The notes below the pieces were generated by a model that had not been told where the DNA came from, made no database searches, and was given only the letters and a program-made list of their open reading frames with translations. A stretch of 64,000 nucleotides of DNA from Nitrososphaerota archaeon. GTDB lineage: Archaea; Thermoproteota; Nitrososphaeria; Nitrososphaerales; Nitrosopumilaceae. The DNA lies in contig JAGWFT010000001.1 in NCBI GenBank assembly GCA_028867755.1, forward strand, positions 260,727 through 324,726, in the 5' to 3' direction. Within the stretch, counting starts at the first letter, position 1. Every line of letters starts with the position of its first letter. A program made the position numbers and the translations under genes. Shown here piece by piece: positions 10,264 through 41,365 of this stretch.

Positions 10264-12675
10264 CTTTCAATCCTACAATAGTTCGATTCAAACATGTTTG
10301 ACCCAACTGTTTTAATCGTTTGTGTAGCAGTCTTTCAATCCTACAATAGTTCGATTCAAACAGGTTTTGTTAGATCATGTGTAGTTTTTGGTATTGTCTT
10401 TCAATCCTACAATAGTTCGATTCAAACCAGAGTAAACGTATATCTGTGTTCTTGTTTCTGCATCCTTTCAATCCTACAATAGTTCGATTCAAACTGCATC
10501 CTGGAACTGGAACAAGTTTGGCTATGACAGACTTTCAATCCTACAATAGTTCGATTCAAACTTTGCAGATGACACCAACGAATCAGCACTCTTGATCCTT
10601 TCAATCCTACAATAGTTCGATTCAAACATTGAGAAAATTCGTATGGAGCTAGAATCATCTATCCTTTCAATCCTACAATAGTTCGATTCAAACCGTTGAC
10701 ACAACTTTTTGCAACAGATGTTTTGAGCACTTTCAATCCTACAATAGTTCGATTCAAACCTCGGAGATGCCTTCGTAGGCATTGGTATGCTAATCTTTCA
10801 ATCCTACAATAGTTCGATTCAAACATGGTAGATTATTTCTGGCCGTTGCAATTGTAATCGCCTTTCAATCCTACAATAGTTCGATTCAAACCCATATCCA
10901 GTTAATCTAACCATTAATGACAATCTACTTTCAATCCTACAATAGTTCGATTCAAACACATATTCAAAAGGCCAACTGAGACAGTCATAAAGACTTTCAA
11001 TCCTACAATAGTTCGATTCAAACTCAATATACGCATATCACCACGAATTAAAGAAGATACTTTCAATCCTACAATAGTTCGATTCAAACGTGTCACCAAA
11101 ATCTCCTGGTGCATTAATGCAAGAGACTTTCAATCCTACAATAGTTCGATTCAAACTGGTGAAAAATTCACAAACACAATGACAGAAAGATACTTTCAAT
11201 CCTACAATAGTTCGATTCAAACTGGCTCGTTTGCTCCAGGAAGAGAATTGGTATGTAGCTTTCAATCCTACAATAGTTCGATTCAAACACATCTTGACAT
11301 TAACAGAACTAAACTCAAGATCAACTTTCAATCCTACAATAGTTCGATTCAAACATTTACATTCCAGCAAAACTAGAAAAGAAAGTTGTCCTTTCAATCC
11401 TACAATAGTTCGATTCAAACAATTATTGTAATGTTCTTTCTGTATGGATTAGTAACCTTTCAATCCTACAATAGTTCGATTCAAACAACTCCAGCTGGCT
11501 GGCGTCCCACAAGATGGAGCCACTTTCAATCCTACAATAGTTCGATTCAAACATGATTGTCTTATTTGTCGGCCTGCAACTACCACTTTCAATCCTACAA
11601 TAGTTCGATTCAAACTGCCTTTTGGAGAAATGAAAGATTTGACATAGTTAACTTTCAATCCTACAATAGTTCGATTCAAACTTTGACAAGAACCCTCCAG
11701 TCTCCATCCTTGGGATACTTTCAATCCTACAATAGTTCGATTCAAACGGCAATATATGTAAGCATTGTATTGCCTTTATCACTCTTTCAATCCTACAATA
11801 GTTCGATTCAAACTCTAATCATTGGCTCTTTTTTCCATTTTATGACTAGCTTTCAATCCTACAATAGTTCGATTCAAACTACTGTGATGTCCGAGAATCT
11901 TCCAAGTCTGACCTGTCTTTCAATCCTACAATAGTTCGATTCAAACCTGTGTTGTTACAGATCCAACAAACGGTCTCTGCTACTTTCAATCCTACAATAG
12001 TTCGATTCAAACGAGATTGTACTTCATTTTTACACTTGTCTCGATATACTTTCAATCCTACAATAGTTCGATTCAAACCTAGTGCAGGCTTTGTTTTCCA
12101 TCCCTTGTTACCATCTTTCAATCCTACAATAGTTCGATTCAAACCAGCTACTGCATTTACTGTACCCTCGTTTGGTGTTATCTTTCAATCCTACAATAGT
12201 TCGATTCAAACTCTATTCTCCCTAGCTCTTTTAGCAACCTTATCTTTCTTTCAATCCTACAATAGTTCGATTCAAACTGGAGTAGGGGCTGGAGTAGGTG
12301 ATGGTGATGGTATCTTTCAATCCTACAATAGTTCGATTCAAACAGGATTACCAGCAGTCAGAAAGATTTGCCATGTACACTTTCAATCCTACAATAGTTC
12401 GATTCAAACGTCTTTACTACATAATAGAAGACAGTTTCCGATGAATCTTTCAATCCTACAATAGTTCGATTCAAACTATCGAATTTCTTCGAATCCTTGT
12501 TGTATTTGAACCACTTTCAATCCTACAATAGTTCGATTCAAACAATATATTGTGTCATATTTTTATTATTTTTACTGATCTTTCAATCCTACAATAGTTC
12601 GATTCAAACTTATTCTAATATGATGTTGTCGAGGTGTTCGAATCCCTTTCAATCCTACAATAGTTCGATTCAAAC
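10264..12675 (-). CRISPR. CRISPR array, 37 repeats / 36 spacers (about 33-38 nt); repeat GTTTGAATCGAACTATTGTAGGATTGAAAG on the minus strand
   Basis: 30-nt repeat CTTTCAATCCTACAATAGTTCGATTCAAAC recurs with a ~66-nt period. Orientation is inferred from the ATTGAAAG 3' handle and the AT-rich leader on the right. Confidence 0.98.
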
Positions 12676-29378: not shown

Positions 29379-29453
29379 GGGCCGATGGTCTAGCCTGGTT
29401 AGGATACCCCCCTGACACGGGGGTGGTCGAGAGTTCAAATCTCTCTCGGCCCA
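29379..29453 (+). tRNA. tRNA-Val(GAC)
   Basis: GGGCCGA/TCGGCCC acceptor stem, CCCCC-CTGACAC-GGGGG anticodon arm, GTTCAAATC T loop. Confidence 0.96.
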
Positions 29454-29622
29454 TTTTATCTCACTTTACGGGCAACGTTGCGGCCCGAACTTAATCGAGA
29501 ATGAACAGGTGACTGTTTGAATCCTCTGCGCGATCAGAAATTATTTTTCCAGTACAACCTTTCCGTTTGGCAGTACTGCAACAAATCTCCAACCTTCCAA
29601 GATGAGATTCTCTGTCTGCTCG

Positions 29623-30924
29623 CTAGATGCTACTCTCTGACCTCGGACTTGCAGATGCCATCATCTTGAGCATCTCTTGCACCTGTTCAGGGGCAGCTCT
29701 TGCAATCAAACTTTGAAACTCTTCTTTCTGTTTTTGCAGTGGATCTTTTACGGTTGTTTCCAAATCAAGCAACTCCTCACTTCTCTTGAAAGCTTCTTGC
29801 ATTTCTTTCACCAAGACTTCGGCCAAGACTCCCTTGTTTGTCGTGTACTTTGCTTCAATGGATCCCTTGTGTCCCATGAAGAAAACACGAAAGTCATGTG
29901 CAATCTTTCCCCTTGCTTCTGCGATTAGGAGCTGCGTGTCAAAGTATGCACGAAGTACATACGGTCTCCATGTGAATCGCGGTCTGAAGGTATTTCTGAC
30001 CACATTTGAGATGCGCACCGTGAGTAGGAACTTGTTTCCATCTCTTCCTTGTCTTCCGTAATTGTAATCCTTGTTTGGTGCAATCACGGCTGACTCGGAA
30101 TTGAGCATCTCGCCTTTTGCTAGTCTATCATTGAGGTATGCAAGTACTCTTTTTGCTCCTCCATCTGACAGAAAAGTAAAGTATTGGTGTCTTGCTTTTG
30201 AGAGAGTTCTGCGCACAATTATCTTTGCAGGTTCTTGTCGAAAGGTTGCAATTCCATTTGTGATAGCCAAGTCGGGCAGGTCCTTTATCAAAAGGCCGTC
30301 TGTTCCGTCATGATTTCCAAGAACTTCGGGTCTTAGTCCTGCTTTTGCCATCAGTGATATGATTGCACCTTCTCGAAGAGCTGCCCTGCTTAGTATCTCT
30401 GACATCTCGTCTGCATCAGGCACCCGTTCGTTTTCCAGTGTCGGAGTGCTGTCTGCATCTGCTATCTTTAACCTCCGTTTTATCTGGATGTCAAAGTGCC
30501 TCAGCCATGACTTCAAAGCTGTCATCATTGCCTCTATGTATTGTGGGGCATAGTCTTCCTGCTCCATCCACGTTATGTGGTCTTGGAGCAAGTCAGTTAC
30601 CGCCCTTAGATCCCTCATGCCAAGTTCTGCAAGCTCCATTGGTGTCATCTTGTGCACCTCGCAGAAGCGAATCAGCCTGCGTGATCTTGTCTCGGCAGTT
30701 ATCGGGCTTCCTCTTGCAATGTTGTCATACCATCTCTTTATGTCAGAGTTTTCAAGCAGCTTGCGCGTCTTGTTTTCTCGTTGCTTTTTGGCAGTGGTTA
30801 TGATTGTGTTGTGTGTTGTTTTTCCCATATCAGACTGCCCACTTGCTTTGCGCAAGCAGTCCTCATCGAGAATTTTAGCAATTGTATCATTATTTAGCTT
30901 TGTTACAATATTGGTAGGATCCAT
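29623..30924 (-). CDS. Tyrosine recombinase / site-specific integrase
   Basis: AGLRPEV (catalytic R), RPYVLRAYF (H/Y-x-x-R), FFMGHKG and KYT (Tyr) motifs; the C-terminal tail may be frameshifted. Confidence 0.9.
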   Translation of the reverse strand: MDPTNIVTKLNNDTIAKILDEDCLRKASGQSDMGKTTHNTIITTAKKQRENKTRKLLENSDIKRWYDNIARGSPITAETRSRRLIRFCEVHKMTPMELAELGMRDLRAVTDLLQDHITWMEQEDYAPQYIEAMMTALKSWLRHFDIQIKRRLKIADADSTPTLENERVPDADEMSEILSRAALREGAIISLMAKAGLRPEVLGNHDGTDGLLIKDLPDLAITNGIATFRQEPAKIIVRRTLSKARHQYFTFLSDGGAKRVLAYLNDRLAKGEMLNSESAVIAPNKDYNYGRQGRDGNKFLLTVRISNVVRNTFRPRFTWRPYVLRAYFDTQLLIAEARGKIAHDFRVFFMGHKGSIEAKYTTNKGVLAEVLVKEMQEAFKRSEELLDLETTVKDPLQKQKEEFQSLIARAAPEQVQEMLKMMASASPRSESSI

Positions 30925-31156
30925 TGGTTCTACATTATTGTCTGCGCGGAGGATATATCTGAGGTCTGGCGCCCTATCCTTATATATTCAGGCACGAGGT
31001 CTAGCAGGAACTTATTTTAGGACATTGGATCTTTTGCGGGGGAGAAAATAAACTCCATTCTGTTTTTGGAGATGGCTCAGTGAGTTTTATCTGTGACACG
31101 CCCTCACTCTGTACGGTGCACCATAATATTGAAAGAGTGATTCCTGCAAAAAACTA

Positions 31157-31339
31157 TTAATCGTTTTCATCCTCAACAACCTCACAAAACTCCAAACTCT
31201 TGACCTCTTTTAGGTTGTCATACTGCCTGCACGTCAACTTTACGCGATATTCGTCTTTTTCTCCCCTAAACTTGAAACGAACAAGAATTTTCTTGCTAGA
31301 AGAGTCTGGTTGCTCATCTTTCATTGGTGGAAAGTGCAT
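31157..31339 (-). CDS. Small hypothetical protein
   Basis: 60-aa ORF with a plausible composition inside the island. Confidence 0.5.
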   Translation of the reverse strand: MHFPPMKDEQPDSSSKKILVRFKFRGEKDEYRVKLTCRQYDNLKEVKSLEFCEVVEDEND

Positions 31340-31580
31340 AACCGTATAATTTTAAATGTACCGGACAGTTGTACATAGATAACAATTAATCTCTCTATCG
31401 GTTCGAGTCAGATGTAGCTAGATTTTAAAATCATTAATTTACTATTTGTCAATGCCTGATTTTAGTAGCAATAAAATAATTGCAATGATCACATTTCCAA
31501 ATACTCATTTCTTTACCGGATGAAAAATACATCTGACCTTTTTTACACATGGAACAAACTTCCCCTGCTGTTATCGTGCA

Positions 31581-32006
31581 CTAGTCACCCCCTGATCTAA
31601 CCTTTGAGGAAATGAGATCTATCTCCGCTTTGCTGAATCTGGAAGATCGTTGTATCTCGTCTATCATTTCCATGTATTTTGAATGAGTTATTTCAGCGCC
31701 AAGTTTGGAAAGATGATCGTTGTAAATTATTCTTCCAAACATGGTATGTCTATACACGTTTTGATCTTTTGTCACAAGACCTAGCTTGACAAGATGTCGG
31801 AGCCGTGAATAATACTGCTTCTTTGAAAGTCCCATTTCTGAATGGGTGCTGGTTTGGGATTTCATCCCATCTCTTGTTGCAATAAAGATTTTCAGTGCGT
31901 CTGGTTTTGATATGAGTGATAACAAATCAATTATCTTCTGTATATGCTCGTCACTTTTGGTGGGCAGTTTACTATCATAGAAATTATAATTATCCTTACT
32001 TTCCAA
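31581..32006 (-). CDS. ArsR-like winged-helix transcription regulator
   Basis: LISKPDALKIF...MGLSKKQYYSRLRHLVKLGLVTK. Confidence 0.75.
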   Translation of the reverse strand: MESKDNYNFYDSKLPTKSDEHIQKIIDLLSLISKPDALKIFIATRDGMKSQTSTHSEMGLSKKQYYSRLRHLVKLGLVTKDQNVYRHTMFGRIIYNDHLSKLGAEITHSKYMEMIDEIQRSSRFSKAEIDLISSKVRSGGD

Positions 32007-32077
32007 GACATTACCTATTCTCCTTGGACACCTTAATGAAGATTCCTTTCTTTCCTTACTATCAAGGTAAGATTGTC

Positions 32078-32248
32078 ATGTCAAAGGAATCAAAACGTGA
32101 GATACTTGGAATGAGTATGATTACCTACAAGTTTCAGGTTACTGTACCAAAGAAGGTCAGAGAGAAACATAGGCTCAAGGAAGGGGACACATTGGCATTT
32201 GTAGAAGAGCATGGACGAATTTACGTTGCAAAGAGTACCGAGGTATAA
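32078..32248 (+). CDS. Stand-alone AbrB/SpoVT-family DNA-binding protein (56 aa)
   Basis: ITYKFQVTVPKKVREKHRLKEGDTLAFVEE; start reset to the ATG at 32078. Confidence 0.8.
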   Translation: MSKESKREILGMSMITYKFQVTVPKKVREKHRLKEGDTLAFVEEHGRIYVAKSTEV

Positions 32249-32363
32249 AGGACAATCTCAAATCTATGGCTATTGTCCCAATTTTTTATTTATGATTAAA
32301 TTTCAAAGATGTTTTAACTCCTGCCATTTCAGAATCTGACTTGAATATGTAGAGTTTTCATTT

Positions 32364-33494
32364 CTATTGAATTGACGCTGGTGCAGTTATCTCAATTTGT
32401 GACACACCATATTGAAATGGAATACTAATAATCCTGCTCTGAGACGTAGTTGTTTGATTATATCGAACTTCTGCCCCGTCTTCTAGAACAATAAATGCAC
32501 TGTCCTGACCATTAATTTTTGAATCTATCAATGCTCTTGGCAGATCCGCTATCAGCGTTCCATTTCCTGTGGTTTTCATTGATAAAATAAGTTCCTTGTT
32601 TATTATGTCAGCCTTGGCTTGTTCAATTTCACCTCCTGTAATTGTATAACTGAAAAAGTAGGTAGAGTTTTTTCCATTAATCAATAGTGAAATTTTCTCA
32701 AGTTGTGGTATTGATGTATCCAACCCGACCAGTCGAAGTATTGCAAGATCATCTGGGTTTGTGCAAGAGTTGGCGTAGGTTGGAGGATAGAAACATGTCT
32801 TGTTTGGTTTTATGACGGCATAATTGTCAACACCATTTCCAGTCACTTTCTCAATATAGATATCAGAGCCAAACCTTTGTGCTGTAAAGTTGTAGTTGCT
32901 TGAGTGTAATGGACATGGCATCCTAAATGTCTCGCATGGGTCAGGAACTCCGCTGCTTGCATTGAGTGTGACTGTCTGAATTGCATTTTCTGTGGACTGT
33001 GGAAGTGCCAAGACCCAGCCATACATCCAAGGGTGTGGTTCTGTGTCATATTGAAACTCACCTACCTTTGTAAAGGTGAAATTAAATGACTTGCCAGGAA
33101 GTAGTAACATGCTGTTGGCAGAGCGGGTTACATTCCAAAAGAGGGGATCATCATGATTGTCAGCCACGATGGTATGCGCAGCGCTTGGGGACTCGTTAGT
33201 CCACTTGACCGTATTATTTATGCCAAGAACAACCACTAGATACCTTGGCTCGTAATTTTTTCCTGAGCTTGGATCTTCAGCACCTGCTGGAATTATAATA
33301 TTTGAAATACTTGTAATGGTTTGGTTTATTTCTGTAGATGCATTTTGGATAGAGCTCGTGTTAGCCAAGGGTTGACTTGGAATCATTGGGCAGAATGTGC
33401 ACGGAGATCTGTTCTCGTGCAACGTAAAAAGAGAGATTGAGACAATCACTGCTATTGCCATCGAAGCAATTATGGCAAAAACTAGAATCTTCAT
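32364..33494 (-). CDS. Membrane-anchored cupredoxin-fold protein
   Basis: N-terminal TM helix; VKWTN...AHT...F.FTFTKVGEFQY...HPWM.G. Confidence 0.75.
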   Translation of the reverse strand: MKILVFAIIASMAIAVIVSISLFTLHENRSPCTFCPMIPSQPLANTSSIQNASTEINQTITSISNIIIPAGAEDPSSGKNYEPRYLVVVLGINNTVKWTNESPSAAHTIVADNHDDPLFWNVTRSANSMLLLPGKSFNFTFTKVGEFQYDTEPHPWMYGWVLALPQSTENAIQTVTLNASSGVPDPCETFRMPCPLHSSNYNFTAQRFGSDIYIEKVTGNGVDNYAVIKPNKTCFYPPTYANSCTNPDDLAILRLVGLDTSIPQLEKISLLINGKNSTYFFSYTITGGEIEQAKADIINKELILSMKTTGNGTLIADLPRALIDSKINGQDSAFIVLEDGAEVRYNQTTTSQSRIISIPFQYGVSQIEITAPASIQ

Positions 33495-33496
33495 AT

Positions 33497-35353
33497 CTAT
33501 TTCACCGGGATGTATCCTACCTTGAATCCAGCAGTGCTGTCAATGTGAAAATCATACGGTTCTGCAGGACAGAACCATTGGTTATTATTTTCAAGCCACG
33601 GAAAATCATTTTGCTTTAGTGTGGAATTTTCATATCCTACGGCAAAAGGCATTGGCACGCAAAATATTGTCAGTCCATAAAGTCCTTTGTGATTTCCTGT
33701 TTTTATCCAGTAAACGATAGTTGAGTCACCTGCAGAAATTGTATTGTTGCCAGAATCATTCCAAGCTGATACATCTTTGGCACTCTGGGTCAGATTATTT
33801 GCCTCTGAGATTCCAATCCCTATTCGTACTGGAAAATCATTTAGGTTGTGATACCTTACACAAATCTTTCCAGTAGAGTTTAGAGGCATGTAGAGTGTTG
33901 GTATTCCTTGGTACTTTTGCGGGTATGGATCTTGACATGGCTCAAACGAGGCAGGCAAGGTCTGGTTTCTTTGATTTGTCACTGTGAAACTTGCTTGTGC
34001 TGTTTTGTTGTCAAGCAAGACTGTCATCGTATAGGTACCAGTCTTGTTGATAACTGGGCTTCCCGCAGGTCCTGCTACAACGTAAGTAAAAGTGGAAAAG
34101 GCCAGCTGTGGATCTTCAGAGTGTACTATACAACAGTTGTTCCAGACCTGTGTACCATTTGAATCAAGAATTGTCACATCGGGAATGATGCCGCCGAATT
34201 CATATCCTGTATATCTTACTGTTGCGTTGATTGGTTGGCCAGCAAAATAATTTTGTTGCAATCCAACTATACTCATATTCTTGATGAGAGGCTCGGGATG
34301 GGTTGTCCCAAGAGCCCATCCCCACATAATGAGCTTGGTTGCAGCAAGTGGATGTACACAAGCCGGAGTAAAATCTTCTGCCTTGAGAATCAACTGAAAA
34401 CCTCCCCTACAATGAAAATCCTGAGGCAGTGTACCTGGAAACATTTTGCGTTGTTGTAAAGGACTTAGAGATTGCAGATATTGATGGATATCAAAATTAA
34501 GAATAAAGTGCGATGTCGTATAGTTCTCTCCGTATTGCGCTAATACCGTATAGTTGCCAGAATAGTAAAATGCGGCTGGTGGGACTGTCCATGCATAGCT
34601 CTCATTTGACCAGAGCGGGAAAAGTTTGGAAATTACTTCTTGATGATGAGAGTCAAATATCTTGATTACCAGTGGCAATTTGCTGTTGGGGTTGGCGATA
34701 TGACCTGAAATTATTATTTTATCTTCGGCGGTGTAATTTTGAAGATTAGTGGTCACGGAGATTGCAGGAGAGGTATTGGGAGTCGTTTGATTTTCTGCAA
34801 GTATGGCAATCTCCAGAGGCTTTGACCATATTGATTCCATATGAGCGGGTATCCCTTCAGAATTAATACTTGCAATAGAATAGACCGTATAATTTCCAGG
34901 CTTGTCAAGTACGATTTCAGGAAATCCACCATACCCTGATACCCACCGACCAGTGGTAGACATGTCAGGCTTGAGAGACTCGTCGATACCTACTGTGGCA
35001 GTGGCGTCTGGCCAAATAAAAGAGGTGTCGCCATTTTGATCAAGAACCTCTATCTCAAAAAGTGGTTCGCCGTGTGTTATTGTTGCAACATTGTTTCCTG
35101 CATTTATCAAATGTGGTATAACTGAAAATTTTTCACCTGTTTTGTATTCTGTTTTGTTTATTTCCTGAGTCACTATTAGCATGGTCCCATTGTATGCAAG
35201 CCCAGTTTTTATGGCATTATCACGTTCCTGCAATATTTCTTTTGCAGTCTGTTGTGCAAAAACACTTTGCGATACAATTATGGAAGATGCAATAAGAATT
35301 ACAATTATTGAGAGGTGTAGAGTTTTCACGCTTGATATGGACGGTACAGACAT
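33497..35353 (-). CDS. Large secreted/surface protein with Ig-like modules
   Basis: Signal peptide; C.GGFQLILKAED.TPACV.P..A.KL..WGW module typical of thaumarchaeal surface proteins. Confidence 0.75.
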   Translation of the reverse strand: MSVPSISSVKTLHLSIIVILIASSIIVSQSVFAQQTAKEILQERDNAIKTGLAYNGTMLIVTQEINKTEYKTGEKFSVIPHLINAGNNVATITHGEPLFEIEVLDQNGDTSFIWPDATATVGIDESLKPDMSTTGRWVSGYGGFPEIVLDKPGNYTVYSIASINSEGIPAHMESIWSKPLEIAILAENQTTPNTSPAISVTTNLQNYTAEDKIIISGHIANPNSKLPLVIKIFDSHHQEVISKLFPLWSNESYAWTVPPAAFYYSGNYTVLAQYGENYTTSHFILNFDIHQYLQSLSPLQQRKMFPGTLPQDFHCRGGFQLILKAEDFTPACVHPLAATKLIMWGWALGTTHPEPLIKNMSIVGLQQNYFAGQPINATVRYTGYEFGGIIPDVTILDSNGTQVWNNCCIVHSEDPQLAFSTFTYVVAGPAGSPVINKTGTYTMTVLLDNKTAQASFTVTNQRNQTLPASFEPCQDPYPQKYQGIPTLYMPLNSTGKICVRYHNLNDFPVRIGIGISEANNLTQSAKDVSAWNDSGNNTISAGDSTIVYWIKTGNHKGLYGLTIFCVPMPFAVGYENSTLKQNDFPWLENNNQWFCPAEPYDFHIDSTAGFKVGYIPVK

Positions 35354-35426
35354 GGTTTAAAAAAGTGGCGTAGAATTGCAAATATCAACGGCATAGCTTA
35401 ACTAGTGCATATCATTTTTTATTGTC

Positions 35427-35588
35427 ATGAAAAAGAAATTTGTGTATCTTATTGTTGCTGTGATAGCTGTAGTGTTATCTTTTGTCCCTGTTTTTCCATA
35501 TCTTCCCCCATGCCCTCCTGCTACAGAGCCTTGCATGACACCGATGGAACATGTGTCACTTGTAGGGTACGTCTTCTCATACCTATAA
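35427..35588 (+). CDS. Small membrane peptide (53 aa)
   Basis: Hand translation: MKKKFVYLIVAVIAVVLSFVPVFPYLPPCPPATEPCMTPMEHVSLVGYVFSYL. Confidence 0.55.
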   Translation: MKKKFVYLIVAVIAVVLSFVPVFPYLPPCPPATEPCMTPMEHVSLVGYVFSYL

Positions 35589-35756
35589 AAAACTGATCTA
35601 AATAGAATTCAAATCCCTACATTGTAATTAATGAATTTAGTTATGTGATTTTAACTATCCATTCCTAGTCTGGTAAGGCCCATCTACTGTATCAGATAAT
35701 CTCGACCCCACAAAACACGGCTAGATTATAATACCAAATCCCTGTATCTTGACTGG

Positions 35757-36158
35757 ATGCCTGACAAATTTTCGAGAGAGACGAGAAGCAAGATAATGTC
35801 ATCCATAAGATCCAAGAACACAAAGCCTGAAACCACAGTAAGGCATCTTTTGTGGTCAATGGGAAAGCGTTATCGTATACATGACAAATCAATTTTTGGC
35901 ACCCCTGACATATCCAGTAAAAAAAACAGGGTTGCAGTTTTCATTGATGGTTGTTTCTGGCACGGCTGCAAATTGTGTTATCAAAAACCAAGAACCAACA
36001 CAGAGTTTTGGAGCAACAAAATTGAAACCAACAGGAAACGAAGGAAATCTGTCATGTCTAGACTGAAAAAGGATGGATGGCGTGTGCTAGAGATATGGGA
36101 ACACGATGTTGAATCAAAACCCCAGAATGTGGTCAGGCGAATATCGAAGATGCTTTAA
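35757..36158 (+). CDS. vsr: Very short patch repair endonuclease
   Basis: RSKIMSSIRSKNTKPE, GTPDI, FIDGCFWHGC, WRVLEIWEH. Confidence 0.95.
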   Translation: MPDKFSRETRSKIMSSIRSKNTKPETTVRHLLWSMGKRYRIHDKSIFGTPDISSKKNRVAVFIDGCFWHGCKLCYQKPRTNTEFWSNKIETNRKRRKSVMSRLKKDGWRVLEIWEHDVESKPQNVVRRISKML

Positions 36159-36163
36159 AAAAA

Positions 36164-37363
36164 TCAATATGACGTTTTTACCCAACGGCTAGATTTCACT
36201 TCCAGTTTTATTTCCAACAGTTCTTTTATGGATTCTGCTATTGCTTTTGCAAACAGTGGCGGAACGGCGTTGCCTATCTGTATGAATTGTTTTGTGCGTG
36301 GTCCTTCGAAAACATAATTGTCACCAAATGACTGGAGTCGTGCAGCTTCTCTGGGTGTAATGCTTCTGTTTTGTTTTGTGTCCGGATGAATATGCATCAG
36401 TCCGTCCTTTGACAGGTGTGCGATTATTGTGGACGATGGCCTGTTCCATGGCATCTTCTTGAACCTGTCCTGGAAGATGTCCTTTCTGTAAGGATTGTAT
36501 CTTTTTGGCAGATCCTTTATCCATTGTCCTGGCTTCAGCAGATGAAAGATTTCAAGATCCCTCTCGTTGTGTGTCCTTGCCACATGACCGTGTACACCAT
36601 CAGATCCTTGTCTCATTTTTGTTTGATAATGGCTTTGATTTTCAGTGTACGGATAAGCAGAAAATTCTCTTCCTTCCCCCGCATGTATCTTCGGAAGATC
36701 AGACAATGCTGAACATACAGTCTCATATGGTTTTCTCCCTTTTGGATCTTCCTTCAGTGGATCATAATGTGAATGCTTCAACACAGGATTTTGTAGACCC
36801 AGCTTGTTTCCTATTGCCAACACCCTTGTCCTGAATTGCGGTACGCCAAAATTTGCAACTTCCTCAAGATAAAAGGTTACATCGTATTTTCCCGCGAGCT
36901 CGTTTTCTATCTCATCTTTGATAGTACCGTCACTCATGGAGAACATTCTTGGCACGTTTTCCATCACAAAAAATTTTGGTTGCAGCCCTTTTACCAATCT
37001 GAAAAATTCTCGGTATAATGTGTTCAGTGGGTGTCTGCGATTGGTTGATCTTCCCATTGATCTGAGTTTTGCACAGGCAATTGTGCTAAACGCTTGACAA
37101 GGAGGCCCACCTGCAAGAACATCTATTTCTCTGCTATTGATTTCCCTTAACACATTATCAACTGTAAGATTTTCGATCTTATACTCAACTGCATTACCAT
37201 GATATTTTCTGAAAGTATCTAATGACCATTTGTCACAGTCAACTCCAAGAAGAGTCTCAAAACCTGCTTGCTTGAATCCCTCTGAGAGACCACCTGCACC
37301 ACAAAAGAGATCTACTACCGTATGTTTTTGCTTCAATTCTATATGATTACAATTTGAGATCAC
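36164..37363 (-). CDS. dcm: DNA (cytosine-5) methyltransferase
   Basis: DLFCGAGG, GGPPCQAFS, FVMENV, QFRTR, TPREAARLQSF, QIGNAVPP. Confidence 0.96.
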   Translation of the reverse strand: MISNCNHIELKQKHTVVDLFCGAGGLSEGFKQAGFETLLGVDCDKWSLDTFRKYHGNAVEYKIENLTVDNVLREINSREIDVLAGGPPCQAFSTIACAKLRSMGRSTNRRHPLNTLYREFFRLVKGLQPKFFVMENVPRMFSMSDGTIKDEIENELAGKYDVTFYLEEVANFGVPQFRTRVLAIGNKLGLQNPVLKHSHYDPLKEDPKGRKPYETVCSALSDLPKIHAGEGREFSAYPYTENQSHYQTKMRQGSDGVHGHVARTHNERDLEIFHLLKPGQWIKDLPKRYNPYRKDIFQDRFKKMPWNRPSSTIIAHLSKDGLMHIHPDTKQNRSITPREAARLQSFGDNYVFEGPRTKQFIQIGNAVPPLFAKAIAESIKELLEIKLEVKSSRWVKTSY

Positions 37364-37420
37364 ATGTCACCATGTGATCTAAATTAGACAAACTGATAAA
37401 AATTAGAGCCATGACCTAAT

Positions 37421-38032
37421 TTATTCCCCAAGTTGTCGAAAATTATGAGGATGTCCATCCTCAGGAATCATATTTCTGTTACAAATTCCAGTCATAAGAT
37501 CCTTCAACTCATTTTCCTCATCATAGGTAAATTTTTTCTTAAACACATCCCCTAACCATTCTCTGATTTTCCTTGTAGACCCATTGTAGGTAAGATATTC
37601 ATTTTCTAATCCTAAGGATGTGATTTTTTTAGTTACGGGATAAAATCTCTTCTTTCTGTCACTCAAGATTTTTAGTGCTGCTGATTCTAGTCTCACATAC
37701 AGTTTTTTAGGTTGACCTGTTTTGTGAACTATTTCCTCGATTCCAATTTCATTAAGGATATTCTGTGTTTTTTTATTCACTTCAAACGCTGTGAATACAA
37801 TCCCCGGAACAGACTTCCCCTTGAAAAACAATTCCCTGAAAACTTCATACCCTTCCTTGCCTTTGGCCAGTTTTATGTCAGCCACAATGAAGTCAATTCC
37901 ACCCTTAAGTAATTCTTTGATGGCCTGCTTAACCGTAGTTACGCCAACTACTTCAAATTTGGTTATTGTCATATTCAAAATCCTGAGCATAGATCCATCA
38001 TTTTCTACTATGAGCATTTTTCTCTTATCCAC
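37421..38032 (-). CDS. Response-regulator receiver-domain protein
   Basis: LIVEND, FIVADIKL (phospho-Asp), VFTA; overlaps the kinase stop codon. Confidence 0.8.
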   Translation of the reverse strand: MDKRKMLIVENDGSMLRILNMTITKFEVVGVTTVKQAIKELLKGGIDFIVADIKLAKGKEGYEVFRELFFKGKSVPGIVFTAFEVNKKTQNILNEIGIEEIVHKTGQPKKLYVRLESAALKILSDRKKRFYPVTKKITSLGLENEYLTYNGSTRKIREWLGDVFKKKFTYDEENELKDLMTGICNRNMIPEDGHPHNFRQLGE

Positions 38033-40184
38033 GTTTGATTTTCTCCCATGGAATGGTAATCACAAATGTAGCACCACGTCCAAGTTCACCATCTTTAAGA
38101 ATTTCAACCTTGCCTCCGTATGATTCCACTGTCTCTTGAACTATACTGAGTCCAAGTCCGGTGCCATTTTCATATTCTGAGAATAATGGTCTAAAAATTT
38201 TGTGTCGGATTGAATCACTCACCCCCTTTCCATTATCACTAAATTTCATCTTTATTCCATGTGATTCTTTGGTGCAAGTTACTTTGATCATTTTTTTATT
38301 AGTTTTTTCAAGGGCCTTGACAGAGTTCGTTAGCATGTTAAGCGCTATAGATAAGAAATCTGCCTTGTTCATGAAGATGGTAAGATCCTTTGGATATGCT
38401 TTTGCTTTCGCATCTATCTCATAGTCCAACACAGTTACAAAATCATCAAGTATGTCATTCATTTCCTTTTCAATCTTAATTGGTTCTTTTATTCTAGATT
38501 CCACTGAATGACCTACTCCTTGAACAAATTTTCTTATGAACCATGTAAAGTGAGACACAGTTACAATTTTATCATCCAAATCTTTTATCACGGCATCTAA
38601 TATTGAGTCGTTGATGCCAAGTTTTTTAAGATATTTTGATATGGCATCTGGGGTGGATTCTATTCCAGCAATAATGTTGAAAATTTCGTGGTAAGAAGCA
38701 GCTGACGAAATTCCCAAAGATGCAAGATTTCTATATGTACGTTCCCGGTTTTCTAGGTCTTGATATTCCTCTGTCAAGTCATCTCTATAACCAGTAAACA
38801 CTTTGCTGATTTTGTTCAGAGATTTTTGAATGACCTTTTTATCAGTTTTATCGAGTTGTGGATTTTCCTCAACCAACTCAGAGAGATATTTAATTTCTGA
38901 TTCTAGAACCCGTTCATGTTTTACTCTGGTTCCTTTTTCTTGCTGTCGTTTGCGTTCTTCACTCCTAAAGTAAAAGAATTCTGTAAATATGTCATTTACA
39001 AAATAAACCATGTTAAGATAAGCATCATTTTCTACAAGCTTTTCCCTAGTAGTAGTATCTATCAATAACGGATTTTCTTCTCTCGATATTTCGACAAAAC
39101 CTATTACTTGAGAATTATAGACCCTGAGGGTAGATTGAACTCTTTGGGCCTCTAAACTAAGCCAATCATTACCCAATGCACCGTATGGACTAACCCAAAA
39201 GCCATCTCGGTATATCTTAATGCCATGGTGATCTCTAACAATAGACGTTATCTCACTCGATTTCAGAACATCGCGATAATATTCATCCCAGGGATCATAT
39301 CTAGTTGAATGAGGAAAGAAGTAGAATACCACCTTGCATAGGCCGAAAGATTTCCAAGGAAGCCCGTTTGATTTCATTATGTCTTCATATGATAATGATC
39401 TTTTCTCTACAAATTTTCCTTCTCTCCAAATTGTCATGGTGGTGTGATTAAAACCTGAGGGAATGGCAGCACTTACTTTGTAGGGAGCTTTCTTAAACAT
39501 TAGACTTTCAATTTCTGAAGTAACACCTGAACCAAATTCGTTAGCAATTATCTTTACTCCAAATTTTTCTTTTTGGGATCGTCTCAATTCAGGTGGAAGC
39601 AAAATAGAAGCTATAGACAAACGTAGTTTTTGGATTTTCTTTTCGTCCCATGGTTCACGAATATTTTCAAGCATTATTGTTGTGCCATGTTCTGAAATAT
39701 TATCGCGTTGAGGATTGATTTCTACTGGATTTTTTATTTGAGTAAATTCCACTGTTTCATCCTCGTATTTGTCCCAATCAATATGAAGGGTTATTTCTTC
39801 TGTGCTAGATACCGGCCGCGAAATTATTGTTGTTTTCTTTGATAATTTTTCTGTTGAAAATCTTCCAATACCTTTGTTTCCAAGTACACGACGACCCATA
39901 TTGGTTATTTTTTGTTTTTCTTTTCCATAGGTGCCGATCACCATCCATTTATTTTCGATGTCAACATAGGTCATTCCTTCACCATTATCTTTCAGGATGA
40001 TTCTTGCATTGATTCCACCACCTTCAAGTAGATTTTCAAATGTAATTGTTAATTCAGTTGCATCTGCATCATATGCATTTTTTACCAACTCAAACAGGGC
40101 TGCAGTATCACTAGAAACTGATTCACGTCCCAAAAGACGTGCCACTTTGCTGGTAAATTTAAAACTTAGACTCTCAGGCTCCAT
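38025..40184 (-). CDS. MORC/MutL-type GHKL ATPase fused to a histidine kinase
   Basis: N-terminal ELVKNAYDADA, DNGEGM, GNKGIGRFS; C-terminal H-box (ASYHEI), NMLTNS, SDNGKGV, GTGLGLSIV. Confidence 0.88.
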   Translation of the reverse strand: MEPESLSFKFTSKVARLLGRESVSSDTAALFELVKNAYDADATELTITFENLLEGGGINARIILKDNGEGMTYVDIENKWMVIGTYGKEKQKITNMGRRVLGNKGIGRFSTEKLSKKTTIISRPVSSTEEITLHIDWDKYEDETVEFTQIKNPVEINPQRDNISEHGTTIMLENIREPWDEKKIQKLRLSIASILLPPELRRSQKEKFGVKIIANEFGSGVTSEIESLMFKKAPYKVSAAIPSGFNHTTMTIWREGKFVEKRSLSYEDIMKSNGLPWKSFGLCKVVFYFFPHSTRYDPWDEYYRDVLKSSEITSIVRDHHGIKIYRDGFWVSPYGALGNDWLSLEAQRVQSTLRVYNSQVIGFVEISREENPLLIDTTTREKLVENDAYLNMVYFVNDIFTEFFYFRSEERKRQQEKGTRVKHERVLESEIKYLSELVEENPQLDKTDKKVIQKSLNKISKVFTGYRDDLTEEYQDLENRERTYRNLASLGISSAASYHEIFNIIAGIESTPDAISKYLKKLGINDSILDAVIKDLDDKIVTVSHFTWFIRKFVQGVGHSVESRIKEPIKIEKEMNDILDDFVTVLDYEIDAKAKAYPKDLTIFMNKADFLSIALNMLTNSVKALEKTNKKMIKVTCTKESHGIKMKFSDNGKGVSDSIRHKIFRPLFSEYENGTGLGLSIVQETVESYGGKVEILKDGELGRGATFVITIPWEKIKRG

Positions 40185-40686
40185 CTTGTTCCTGCGATTT
40201 CTTACAGTTTCTTGTTTTTAACCTTAGTTAGAAAGGTTTGAATCTGTTGGGACACAATATAATTTGATCTAACTAGAGATCCAAGCGATCATTTGTTAGA
40301 AATTGTATAATGTAGTTTTCATCAGGCTCCCATGACAATCAACAAATCTGTACCGATTTCCACCTTCCAATCTCTGACACTATGACATGATTATACCTAT
40401 TCGATTCAACTAATGATGAGCCCCAACATGACCCAACACATGAAAACCTGCAAAATATGGTTACCTGCCACGTTTTGCCTTGGTAAAATAATCCACCATG
40501 CACTCTTTATGTGCATATTCGGCAGTATTGCACGAGGTTTGACAAAACCAGCAAATGCCTTTGCGAAATTTCGGTGACTCGACCTCTCGCACTTGATAAT
40601 ATTTACGACATTCTTGCCCTTAACTCTGATCGTAGGATAGGATCGTAGAGTACTGGTGCTATAACCCACTGGATTATCTGGCCTTC

Positions 40687-41087
40687 AAAACTATAGGTAG
40701 TTTTTTCCAGTTACTGATTAGTACACTTACGATCATTCAGCTATCAATAGCAGTTTTTTCAATCAGTCAACTACTATAGATAGCAGTCAGTAGCAGTAGT
40801 TGTTTTGACTATAGGTAGCAGTCAGTAGCAGTAGTTGTTTTGACTGCTATAGGTAGCAGTCAGTAGCAGTCGACTACCTATGGACCTTGACTGCTATAGG
40901 TAGTTTTCAAATGACTGCTACTCGTGATTTTTGTCAAGTTGGCAAAAACTGGTGATGACTACCTATAGTCATTTAGTTGATAGAAAAACTAGCAGTTTTT
41001 TCAATCAGTCAACTACTATAGGTAGTAGTTATCAATACTGGTATCGATACAAATGGTCTGGGTTTTGAAAAACTATAGGTAGTTTTT
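40687..41087. repeat. Array of nine CTA-TAGG-TAG-centred palindromes plus 30-31 bp direct repeats
   Basis: Cores at 40691, 40774 (variant), 40809, 40847, 40874 (reverse, variant), 40894, 40959 (reverse), 41016, 41073. Confidence 0.9.
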
Positions 41088-41365
41088 TCAATTCATGTTA
41101 TCGATATAGGTGTATTACGCAGATGCGTAGTATGCGCGTACTCTTACACCTTGCGTACTACGAGTATGTTTTTTCTGCATTTTTTAATGCATAGAAAGAT
41201 TAACAAATGTGTAGTTGTATAGATATAGTAAGATTTCTGAAAAAAAAGAAATGGGGTAGGAACTGCGAAGCTGTTCCAATAGCTTACTGCCAGTGTCTAC
41301 AACCTCTGTGTCAGTCGACCTCTCTCGGCCCATTTCTTTTTATTTTAATGTATGTAACACAAGGC

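Follow-up and report, generated by a model that had tools for sequence, protein, structure and literature searches.

The 64,000-nucleotide stretch of DNA analysed here (the window: positions 260,727 to 324,726 of contig JAGWFT010000001.1 in the Nitrososphaerota archaeon assembly GCA_028867755.1, our G000:C24:260727-324726) carries, in the gene-free end of an integrated element, a compact array of nine copies of an asymmetric 10-bp core, CTATAGGTAG. Here we show that this array, at 40687-41087 in the window numbering used throughout, is found at one locus only in the 1.64-Mb genome (99.95% complete), that it lies inside a true insertion at a tRNA-Val gene, and that it holds an excess of perfect hairpins over the rest of the genome. 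The reading that we favour, although we would give it rather less than an even chance, is that the array is element-specific cis-acting DNA, comprising binding sites of the kind found at origins of replication or maintenance, which may form hairpins on unwinding.

A dense hairpin array at a single locus

The core is present in seven exact copies, against 0.10 expected in the window from shuffled sequence, with starts at 40691, 40809, 40847, 40894, 41016 and 41073 on the forward strand and at 40959 on the reverse strand. Two further sites differ from it by one mismatch (CTATAGATAG at 40774, forward strand; CCATAGGTAG at 40874, reverse strand), which brings the cores to nine in 400 bp, seven direct and two inverted. 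Outside the array there is no further exact copy in the whole genome. Five of the nine sites form perfect hairpins, with 7-9 bp stems of four types around the same TAGG loop; folded as single-stranded DNA (ssDNA) these reach -3.7, -8.7, -4.6, -5.1 and -5.0 kcal/mol in order along the array, and the remaining four cores 0 to -2.1 kcal/mol. A preliminary description of this DNA, made from its letters, had reported nine cores, five perfect stems around one 4-nt loop, direct repeats and no open reading frame (ORF), and all of these hold, the five stems at exactly the positions it gave.

The array is bounded by an exact 21-nt direct repeat on the forward strand (left copy 40687-40707, right copy 41069-41089), and the hairpins at its two ends, site 1 (AAAACTA-TAGG-TAGTTTT, 40687-40704, forward strand, -3.7 kcal/mol) and site 9 (AAAAACTA-TAGG-TAGTTTTT, 41068-41087, forward strand, -5.0 kcal/mol), are each followed by a T6 run. 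Site 2 (40774-40783, forward strand) has the variant core CTATAGATAG and hybrid flanks and forms no hairpin; it lies within a 40-nt forward-strand repeat, D5a (TAGCAGTTTTTTCAATCAGTCAACTA plus the core, 40748-40787), that is 95% identical to its partner D5b at 40990-41029. Sites 2, 3 and 4 are carried by three tandem units of 35-38 nt on the forward strand (40773-40880), each made up of the core and GCAGTCAGTAGCAGTAGTTGTTTTGA, which start at 40773, 40808 and 40846 (spacings of 35 and 38), the second and third being 97% and 71% identical to the first. Site 3 (40809-40818, forward strand) has an exact core and hybrid flanks and is interrupted by a CAG bulge; in the third unit a 3-nt CTG insertion removes a bulge of this type, leaving the perfect 9-bp hairpin of site 4 (TGACTGCTA-TAGG-TAGCAGTCA, 40841-40862, forward strand), which at -8.7 kcal/mol is the most stable of the array.

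Site 5 (40874-40883, reverse strand), with the inverted variant core CCATAGGTAG, forms no hairpin, nor does site 6 (40894-40903, forward strand) fold stably, its exact core having the left flank of site 4 and the right flank of site 1; the two make up a close convergent pair. The inverted hairpin of site 7 (40955-40972, reverse strand, -4.6 kcal/mol), whose forward strand reads ATGACTA-CCTA-TAGTCAT, forms with site 3 (40806-40818) a perfect inverted repeat of 13 nt, and together with site 8 (AACTACTA-TAGG-TAGTAGTT, 41011-41030, forward strand, -5.1 kcal/mol) it sits on the arms of an inverted repeat, I1. An extra hairpin with another loop (AAAAACT-AGC-AGTTTTT, 40984-41000, forward strand, -3.9 kcal/mol) overlaps the start of D5b. 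From core to core the spacings are 83, 35, 38, 27, 20, 65, 57 and 57 bp. T6 runs lie at 40701, 40754, 40996 and 41083 on the forward strand and there are three T5 runs on the reverse strand; the largest ORF in the array has 45 codons' worth of residues (45 aa), with nothing conserved.

Several measures place this hairpin content beyond chance. Across the genome, 3-bp arms around a 4-nt loop gain at least four extra pairs with a probability of 0.0067, and this is so at five of the nine array sites. The array is the top cluster of perfect hairpins (stem of at least 7 bp) in the genome, with nine scored and six distinct, followed by a region with five, while the genome averages 0.49 per kb; folding of the region as a whole gives z = -8 to -9. 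Elsewhere in the genome, k-mer clusters comprise one other that is non-coding, a clustered regularly interspaced short palindromic repeats (CRISPR) array, the rest being coding tandem repeats.

That description had gone further, to fully compensated stems and selection on structure. Compensation stands for five of the nine sites but is weaker than it appears. The flanks are a mosaic of a few reused words that begin with TAG: in 403 nt, TAGCAGT occurs 8 + 3 times, and TAG and GTAG reach counts of 26 and 12 where 5.4 and 1.2 are expected. Shuffling the flanks among the nine sites gives p = 0.01-0.03, which is no more than moderate support for cognate pairing; sites 2, 3 and 6 combine different flank types, a result to be expected if units have recombined. 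The stem covariation is nevertheless real, if moderate. Between stem B (TGACTGCTA, site 4) and stem D (AACTACTA, site 8) there are two G:C to A:T changes, each compensated on both arms, and sites 8 and 9, a diverged 57-bp duplicate pair, differ in their flanks yet remain self-complementary. Together with the CTG insertion that removes the bulge, these changes point to pairing having been maintained.

A tRNA-Val island and its relatives

The array belongs to an 11.9-kb element (29457-41335) inserted at a tRNA-Val gene and flanked by a 16-bp direct repeat of the tRNA-Val 3' end, CTCTCTCGGCCCATTT, as attL (29441-29456) and attR (41320-41335, forward strand). The site is empty in G121, G262 and G316 and in over 15 further members of the genus, the tRNA-Val flank meeting a pyridoxamine-phosphate-oxidase-like gene with a join that falls exactly at 29456/41336; the empty loci include those of four unpublished genomes (G252, G222, G199 and G077), and the published genomes alone suffice. 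The att repeats and the precise empty sites therefore establish 29457-41335 as a true insertion and confirm that the array stands, as had been proposed, at the end of an integrated element; the array is in the interior of a 1.24-Mb contig. In close relatives, short inserts separate tRNA-Val from the oxidase gene, one of about 950 bp in G267 (L412) and, in the unpublished genomes G222 (L416) and G252 (L413), others of about 375 and 110 bp. They resemble the decayed remains of elements that once occupied this att site. Within the element the array occupies the integrase-distal end, in a 0.7-kb gene-free stretch (40593-41320) that runs from the last gene to attR and that would, from the geometry of an excised circle, adjoin attP.

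The sole intact integrase of the element is a 433-aa gene at the opposite end, 10 kb from the array and facing the tRNA. We call it integrase-like from its context and a weak PHROG match, as no Pfam or NCBIfam integrase model matches it; over its first ~60 residues it is a basic tail of low complexity (53-58% conserved) that matches no domain. The other genes encode a divergent winged helix-turn-helix (wHTH)/AbrB(MazE) pair, two exported proteins, Vsr, Dcm, a receiver protein and a fusion of a MORC-type GHKL ATPase with a histidine kinase, and the element includes at least four small DNA-binding candidates. The DNA can be placed in the Nitrosopumilaceae by its DUF6659 and NitrOD1-like domains and a GC content of 36-40%.

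The array starts 95 bp upstream of its nearest gene, a zinc-ribbon ORF of 43 aa (CWFCQ...C...H..C; KGICWFCQTSCN..YAHKEC; 40461-40592, reverse strand) of a family with several copies per genome across the genus (51-68% protein identity) and no Pfam family. Next to it, at 40244-40458 on the reverse strand, lies a frameshifted remnant of the C-terminal ~60 residues (the HxLRH...Y region) of a second, type-2 tyrosine integrase. This family, which has an N-terminal helix-turn-helix, is intact only in G262:C197 (422 aa) and near-intact in G285, with N- or C-terminal fragments in G094 (at the same tRNA-Val position), G312, G232, G199, G035 and G077. Gene remnants make a patchwork of the right end of the element.

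Between the array and attR lie, in this order, three further features. A cluster of GCGTA(C/G)/TACGAG words (41119-41165) resembles the CGTAC/ACGAA repeats that sister elements carry at the same end. It is followed by a 91-bp AT-rich tract (41165-41255; 76% AT against 62% for the window), which begins 78 bp from the array and includes the AT-richest 60 nt of the non-coding end, the enrichment being moderate. Finally, a conserved stem-loop on the forward strand (GGTAGG-AAC...GTT-CC-AATAGCTTACTGCC, 41254-41292, stem 41259-41263/41273-41277) is common to five elements of the tRNA-Val integrase family, with three covarying pairs. The four relatives (L345:3105-3165, reverse strand; L349:11958-12010; L396:7062-7120, reverse strand; L389:7110-7170, reverse strand) lie 30-70 bp inside attR and follow one plan: an A-run, GG(T/A)AGG, a 5-bp stem (GGAAC, GGGAC or GGAGT) and CC(A/G)(A/G)TA(G/A)G..CTGCC. 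TAGG occurs in this structure once here and twice in three of the four aligned relatives. On the minus strand it has the look of a hairpin with a T-run behind it, and its possible roles are those of a terminator, an accessory site for recombination or a small RNA.

Other arrays are found at this end in sister elements that share the att site. The elements of G094, G237 and G205 have integrases 74-77% identical to the one here, and none has the CTATAGGTAG motif. At the corresponding end, G094 has seven TTCGTAC/GTAC words, GTAC palindromes and three hairpins, and G237 and G242 have GCACGAAYTT words in both orientations, an array type therefore common to two genomes; in G205 and three more distant elements there is nothing comparable at the array position. 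As G094 and G237 have in common only the integrase and a piece of one exported-protein gene, the CGTAC/ACGAA words track the integrase, and since a small cluster of them is kept here, the CTATAGGTAG array would be an extra module rather than the arm region of the family. The G237 element also holds, at L349:4183-4490, two sets of three 21-bp-spaced GGTTGTAAA repeats, inverted and inside a long inverted repeat of about 90 bp, a gene-free structure that looks like an origin or a miniature inverted-repeat transposable element.

The closest architectural analogue, similar to the array but without significant homology to it (best E = 0.13), is in G285:C1 (L401:11290-11640). It comprises a T6 run, about nine CTAGACTAC words in both orientations and two perfect hairpins of 7 bp, TAGTCTA-CGAA-TAGACTA and TAGACTA-GTA-TAGTCTA, and the near-intact type-2 integrase lies about 500 bp downstream. 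The CTATAGGTAG array adjoins a remnant of the same integrase family.

No relative of the array itself emerged from wider searches. The core cluster was not found in the 299-399 genomes of the family that were searched, no DNA similarity to any part of the array was detected in 61 genomes of the genus, and phage and plasmid records and Rfam held no relative. In pattern scans, which for genome and metagenome contigs used the exact core, IMG/VR and the GTDB representatives (one genome per species) yielded one phage family and, beyond it, nothing but tandem or coding repeats without relation to the array, and JGI metagenomes yielded no array relative among the matches listed; relatives of the integrase or the MORC-kinase were absent from IMG/VR. 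The preliminary description had not recognised a described element, and no description or homologue was found in the collections scanned.

Apart from the phage family, all cases listed from these collections of two cores within 20-50 bp proved to be regular tandem or coding repeats. A 19-nt match in a 292-kb viral contig is a leucine-rich-repeat protein repeat. A 20-bp tandem repeat, GGCATAGGAGACTATAGGTA, in a metagenome-assembled genome of the Nitrosopumilaceae (CBDBMG010000003.1) has no hairpin flanks; its two long arrays (L146:7470-7830 and L158:650-1100) hold the same 10-mer core, probably by coincidence. The phage family comprises about 29 IMG/VR contigs (L030, L034, L038, L081 and ~25 more), several of 36-43 kb, with two and once three ACACTATAGGTAGTGT sites 31-32 bp apart, which form the hairpin ACACTA-TAGG-TAGTGT upstream of a gene with a Shine-Dalgarno-like GAGG. 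The left half of that hairpin fits the SP6/K11 promoter core CACTATAG. A T7/SP6-like promoter was nevertheless rejected as a model for the array: the contigs are bacterial (the Shine-Dalgarno-like GAGG precedes the downstream ATG and GC is 42-48%), the match is a product of the search pattern, and a single-subunit RNA polymerase is lacking in the archaeal element.

Nor is the array a CRISPR, as its spacing is irregular, its orientation mixed and the true CRISPR repeat of the genome different. That CRISPR array lies in the window at 10264-12675, with 37 repeats of CTTTCAATCCTACAATAGTTCGATTCAAAC (30 nt) and spacers of 33-38 nt. Its 36 spacers have no match in the genome, inside or outside the tRNA-Val element, or in the relatives compared, and self-targeting of the element was rejected on this count (0/36).

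Possible roles of the array

According to the reading that we favour, the array would serve as a platform on which recognition sites are iterated, each made up of the core CTATAGGTAG and TAG-initiated flank words, and array, AT-rich tract and attP would together form the gene-free control region of an excised circular element. An iteron-type origin of replication or maintenance would be its most likely role. A sequence-specific protein, encoded by the element or by a helper, would bind the repeats in both orientations; on unwinding, the forward strand could fold into TAGG-loop hairpins, and these might stabilise the opening or serve as single-strand recognition or priming signals. The layout is origin-like in that the repeats stand in both orientations, with sites 5 and 6 convergent, sites 7 and 8 on the arms of I1 and a 91-bp tract of 76% AT alongside, and the reading draws further on the sister elements at the same att site, which bear other short-repeat arrays at the same end, and on the G285 array with its type-2 integrase. 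A survey of integrated elements in thaumarchaea has described many cryptic ones in which no replication protein is recognisable, and suggests wHTH proteins as the Reps of iteron plasmids (PMC6563490); the element encodes a protein of this class.

Iteron-type origins, such as those of IncP-1 and pPS10-type plasmids and reportedly the subject of a 2014 review by Konieczny et al. (cited in PMC6563490), are similar in having many short element-specific words in both orientations in a gene-free region, with an AT-rich tract alongside that is here only moderately enriched, and a mobile element as host whose relatives bear other words at the same place. However, no Rep gene is adjacent or recognised here, the neighbours being the zinc-ribbon ORF and the integrase remnant; the core has 10 bp, whereas iterons have 17-22 bp; the sites are unevenly spaced and out of phase; the variable self-complementary flanks of five sites have no counterpart in iterons; and replication is here only predicted. 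Origin recognition boxes (ORBs) bound by archaeal Orc1/Cdc6 are likewise short, dyad-bearing, inverted repeats that flank an AT-rich tract, but the host ORB, CCTAGAGTGGAAATAAAGGGG, shares nothing with the core, which excludes a mimic of host origin boxes, and the element has no Orc1. Three such ORB-like boxes (two direct, one inverted) and an AT-rich tract lie at G000:C24:244251-244427, just upstream of the single orc1/cdc6 gene and about 16 kb before the window start, and mark the probable chromosomal origin. Partition centromeres (F sopC, R1 parC, the omega heptads) offer a third likeness, with about ten short non-coding repeats in mixed orientation, some of them dyads, and typical binders that are ribbon-helix-helix or AbrB-like, an AbrB/MazE-type protein being encoded in the element; here, though, there is no ParA/ParM-type NTPase, and the AbrB gene is 8.4 kb away in a module that elsewhere is arrayless.

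Several points weigh against an origin-type region. No Rep or other replication initiator, primase, helicase or Orc1 is recognised in the element by Pfam, PHROGs or NCBIfam, and the wHTH-AbrB pair is present in other elements without arrays. As a singleton with no homologue in the collections searched, the array offers no comparative proof of selection, and its internal copies of 97-100% identity point to a recent expansion that could be neutral. A dimeric binder of double-stranded DNA leaves unexplained why the same flank variant stands on both arms, the site spacing shows no helical phasing, and AT-rich stems of 7-9 bp would be too short for efficient cruciform extrusion.

Among the alternatives, the one that survives best is an operator or architectural array with sites for the receiver protein (whose own C-terminal domain is of no known type), the zinc-ribbon protein or the wHTH or AbrB regulator, which would control the leftward operon of zinc ribbon, MORC-kinase, receiver and Dcm, or would act as accessory, arm-like sites in excision and integration. 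The array does lie 95 bp upstream of the first gene of that operon, in an element with at least four small DNA-binding candidates, and TAGG recurs in the stem-loop by attR. We nonetheless think it unlikely, if the strongest of the rivals, as nine sites in 400 bp far exceed typical autoregulation and every candidate partner has homologues that do without an array. For the zinc-ribbon ORF these are five paralogous loci lacking an upstream array, and for the wHTH-AbrB pair four other elements that carry the module but no core cluster even at two mismatches, the closest (78% identity) in the unpublished genome G222. For the MORC-kinase, receiver, Dcm and Vsr they are homologous modules in G142, G233 and G274, all arrayless, and on this account the proposal of a loading or decoy array for the MORC-kinase or methylase is not supported. 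CTATAG is not avoided in the genome (observed/expected 1.04; CCWGG is mildly depleted, at 0.73), and a Dcm or restriction target was rejected on that ratio.

Both modules are of some interest in themselves. The divergent pair of a wHTH (Lrs14/Sso10a-like) and an AbrB/MazE protein at 31581-32248 is a 650-bp module found at 75-85% nucleotide identity across several otherwise different elements (L381, L383, L384 and L385), like a regulatory switch cassette, and almost every genome of the genus has a chromosomal paralogue of the wHTH within a protein of ~320 aa. Relatives of the Vsr/Dcm/MORC-GHKL-histidine-kinase/receiver module (35757-40184) occur in three genomes of other genera of the family (L363, L364 and L365), where the fusion protein is 43-46% identical and has Dcm upstream of it; this difference in gene order suggests that the module is a mobile cassette for defence or signalling.

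The integrase fares no better as a partner. Arm-type sites, which in the lambda type lie on both arms within about 250 bp of the core, are disfavoured by a distance of 233-633 bp from the attR core, by the lack of such sites on the attL side, and by the integrases of 74-77% identity that use CGTAC/ACGAA-type repeats, of which a small cluster is found here too; the low-complexity tail at the integrase N-terminus is no evident arm-binding domain, and a review of archaeal tyrosine recombinases makes no mention of arm-type sites. Folded recombination sites were a further suggestion of the preliminary description, and integron attC sites and the attP of CTX phage do share with the array variable palindromes, a premium on structure over sequence, strand specificity and a tyrosine recombinase nearby. 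The suggestion was not borne out: there are no cassettes between the sites (no ORF above 45 aa, spacings of 20-83 bp), the 7-9 bp stems are perfect, lacking extrahelical bases and R/L boxes, an IntI-type integrase was not found, and close homologues of the integrase do without such sites.

Single-strand signals, whose hairpins would be read only when the forward strand is single-stranded, are distinctly less probable than an origin-type region in our view, whether as a lagging-strand (single-strand) origin or priming site or as a transfer or rolling-circle origin with its enzyme in trans. Such signals would account for compensated stems of four types around one loop, including the two double changes between B and D and the 3-nt insertion that repairs a bulge, and for a strand bias of 7:2 with three stems that lengthen by G-T pairs on the forward strand, and both the fold energies (-3.7 to -8.7 kcal/mol) and the regional z are in keeping with them. 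Four of the nine cores, however, are unable to fold, no nick-site-like conserved sequence stands beside the stems, and the element has no conjugation or rolling-circle genes. To our knowledge, single-strand origins and nick sites are single structures and never nine-fold arrays. An origin nicked by a HUH enzyme, which had been put forward earlier, likewise gains no ground: Y1 transposase (PF01797) was not found in the genome G000 by a search whose control was positive in six genomes, and Viral_Rep and Rep_1 were not found either, a weak result since their controls matched nowhere; no relaxase family was searched. The repetitive extragenic palindromes (REPs) and bacterial interspersed mosaic elements mobilised by RAYT (TnpA-REP) are comparable in their small hairpins, variable stems and conserved GTAG tag (twelve in 403 nt here), but REPs are dispersed in intergenic regions, whereas the array is at one locus in a genome where Y1 transposase was not found, and GTAG here spans the junction of loop and stem rather than flanking the foot of the hairpin.

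A related and similarly doubtful idea is a folded-DNA platform, in which the same TAGG tetraloop and CTA/TAG closing pairs, presented by one strand, would be read by a protein of the element family that recognises only ssDNA; TAGG also flanks the conserved, covarying stem-loop by attR.

The array could also be a neutral palindromic satellite, recently expanded from one hairpin unit by slippage, unequal crossing-over and gene conversion. We regard this too as improbable, even though the array is a singleton among the family genomes and public collections scanned, its internal copies are 95-100% identical, three sites are hybrids and the right end is a patchwork of remnants. Five perfect stems of four types are hard to obtain with neither selection nor templating (0.0067 per site; flank shuffle p = 0.01), the core is invariant in seven of nine copies while the flanks vary, and sister elements keep arrays at the same position, one array type being held in two genomes.

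Least likely is an RNA-level element, either several short transcripts of a hairpin and a U-tail (hairpins 1 and 9, each followed by T6, do resemble terminated short RNAs, and the G-U-compatible extensions favour the forward strand) or a protein-sponge RNA with UAGG loops in the manner of CsrB, for Rfam gives no match, no B recognition element or TATA box is recognisable before the units on reading the sequence, the perfect inverted unit of site 7 would show CCUA rather than UAGG, and four T6 runs on the forward and three T5 runs on the reverse strand lie inside the array. Oligo-T stretches stop archaeal RNA polymerase, and a long transcript is therefore unlikely; the earlier preference for a function at the level of DNA over an RNA sponge fits the data better.

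Cryptic elements of ammonia-oxidising archaea

Repeat arrays are already known from the control regions of mobile elements. What is unusual here is the combination of an invariant asymmetric 10-bp core with variable self-complementary flanks, and the host, a cryptic thaumarchaeal element of a marine ammonia-oxidising archaeon. Since the array is a singleton and no partner protein has emerged, any function assigned to it is putative.

The integrated elements of ammonia-oxidising archaea are mostly 'cryptic' as to how they replicate, move and are controlled (PMC6563490). Our work shows that, in one integrase family of these elements, a repeat-rich region free of genes is kept by attR, in which the repeat words are swapped between lineages and in which one element has built an unusually elaborate hairpin version. 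Should the array prove neutral, it would be a clean example of palindromic-repeat expansion at the decaying end of an island. If a folded-DNA platform is at play, it would mean hairpin-based replication, transfer or recombination in mesophilic archaea with no known HUH enzyme, and if the hairpins are the recognised form, they would offer a first hint that these elements pass through a single-strand-DNA step in their life cycle. The array thus provides a concrete cis-acting candidate, and a bait for the missing trans-acting protein.

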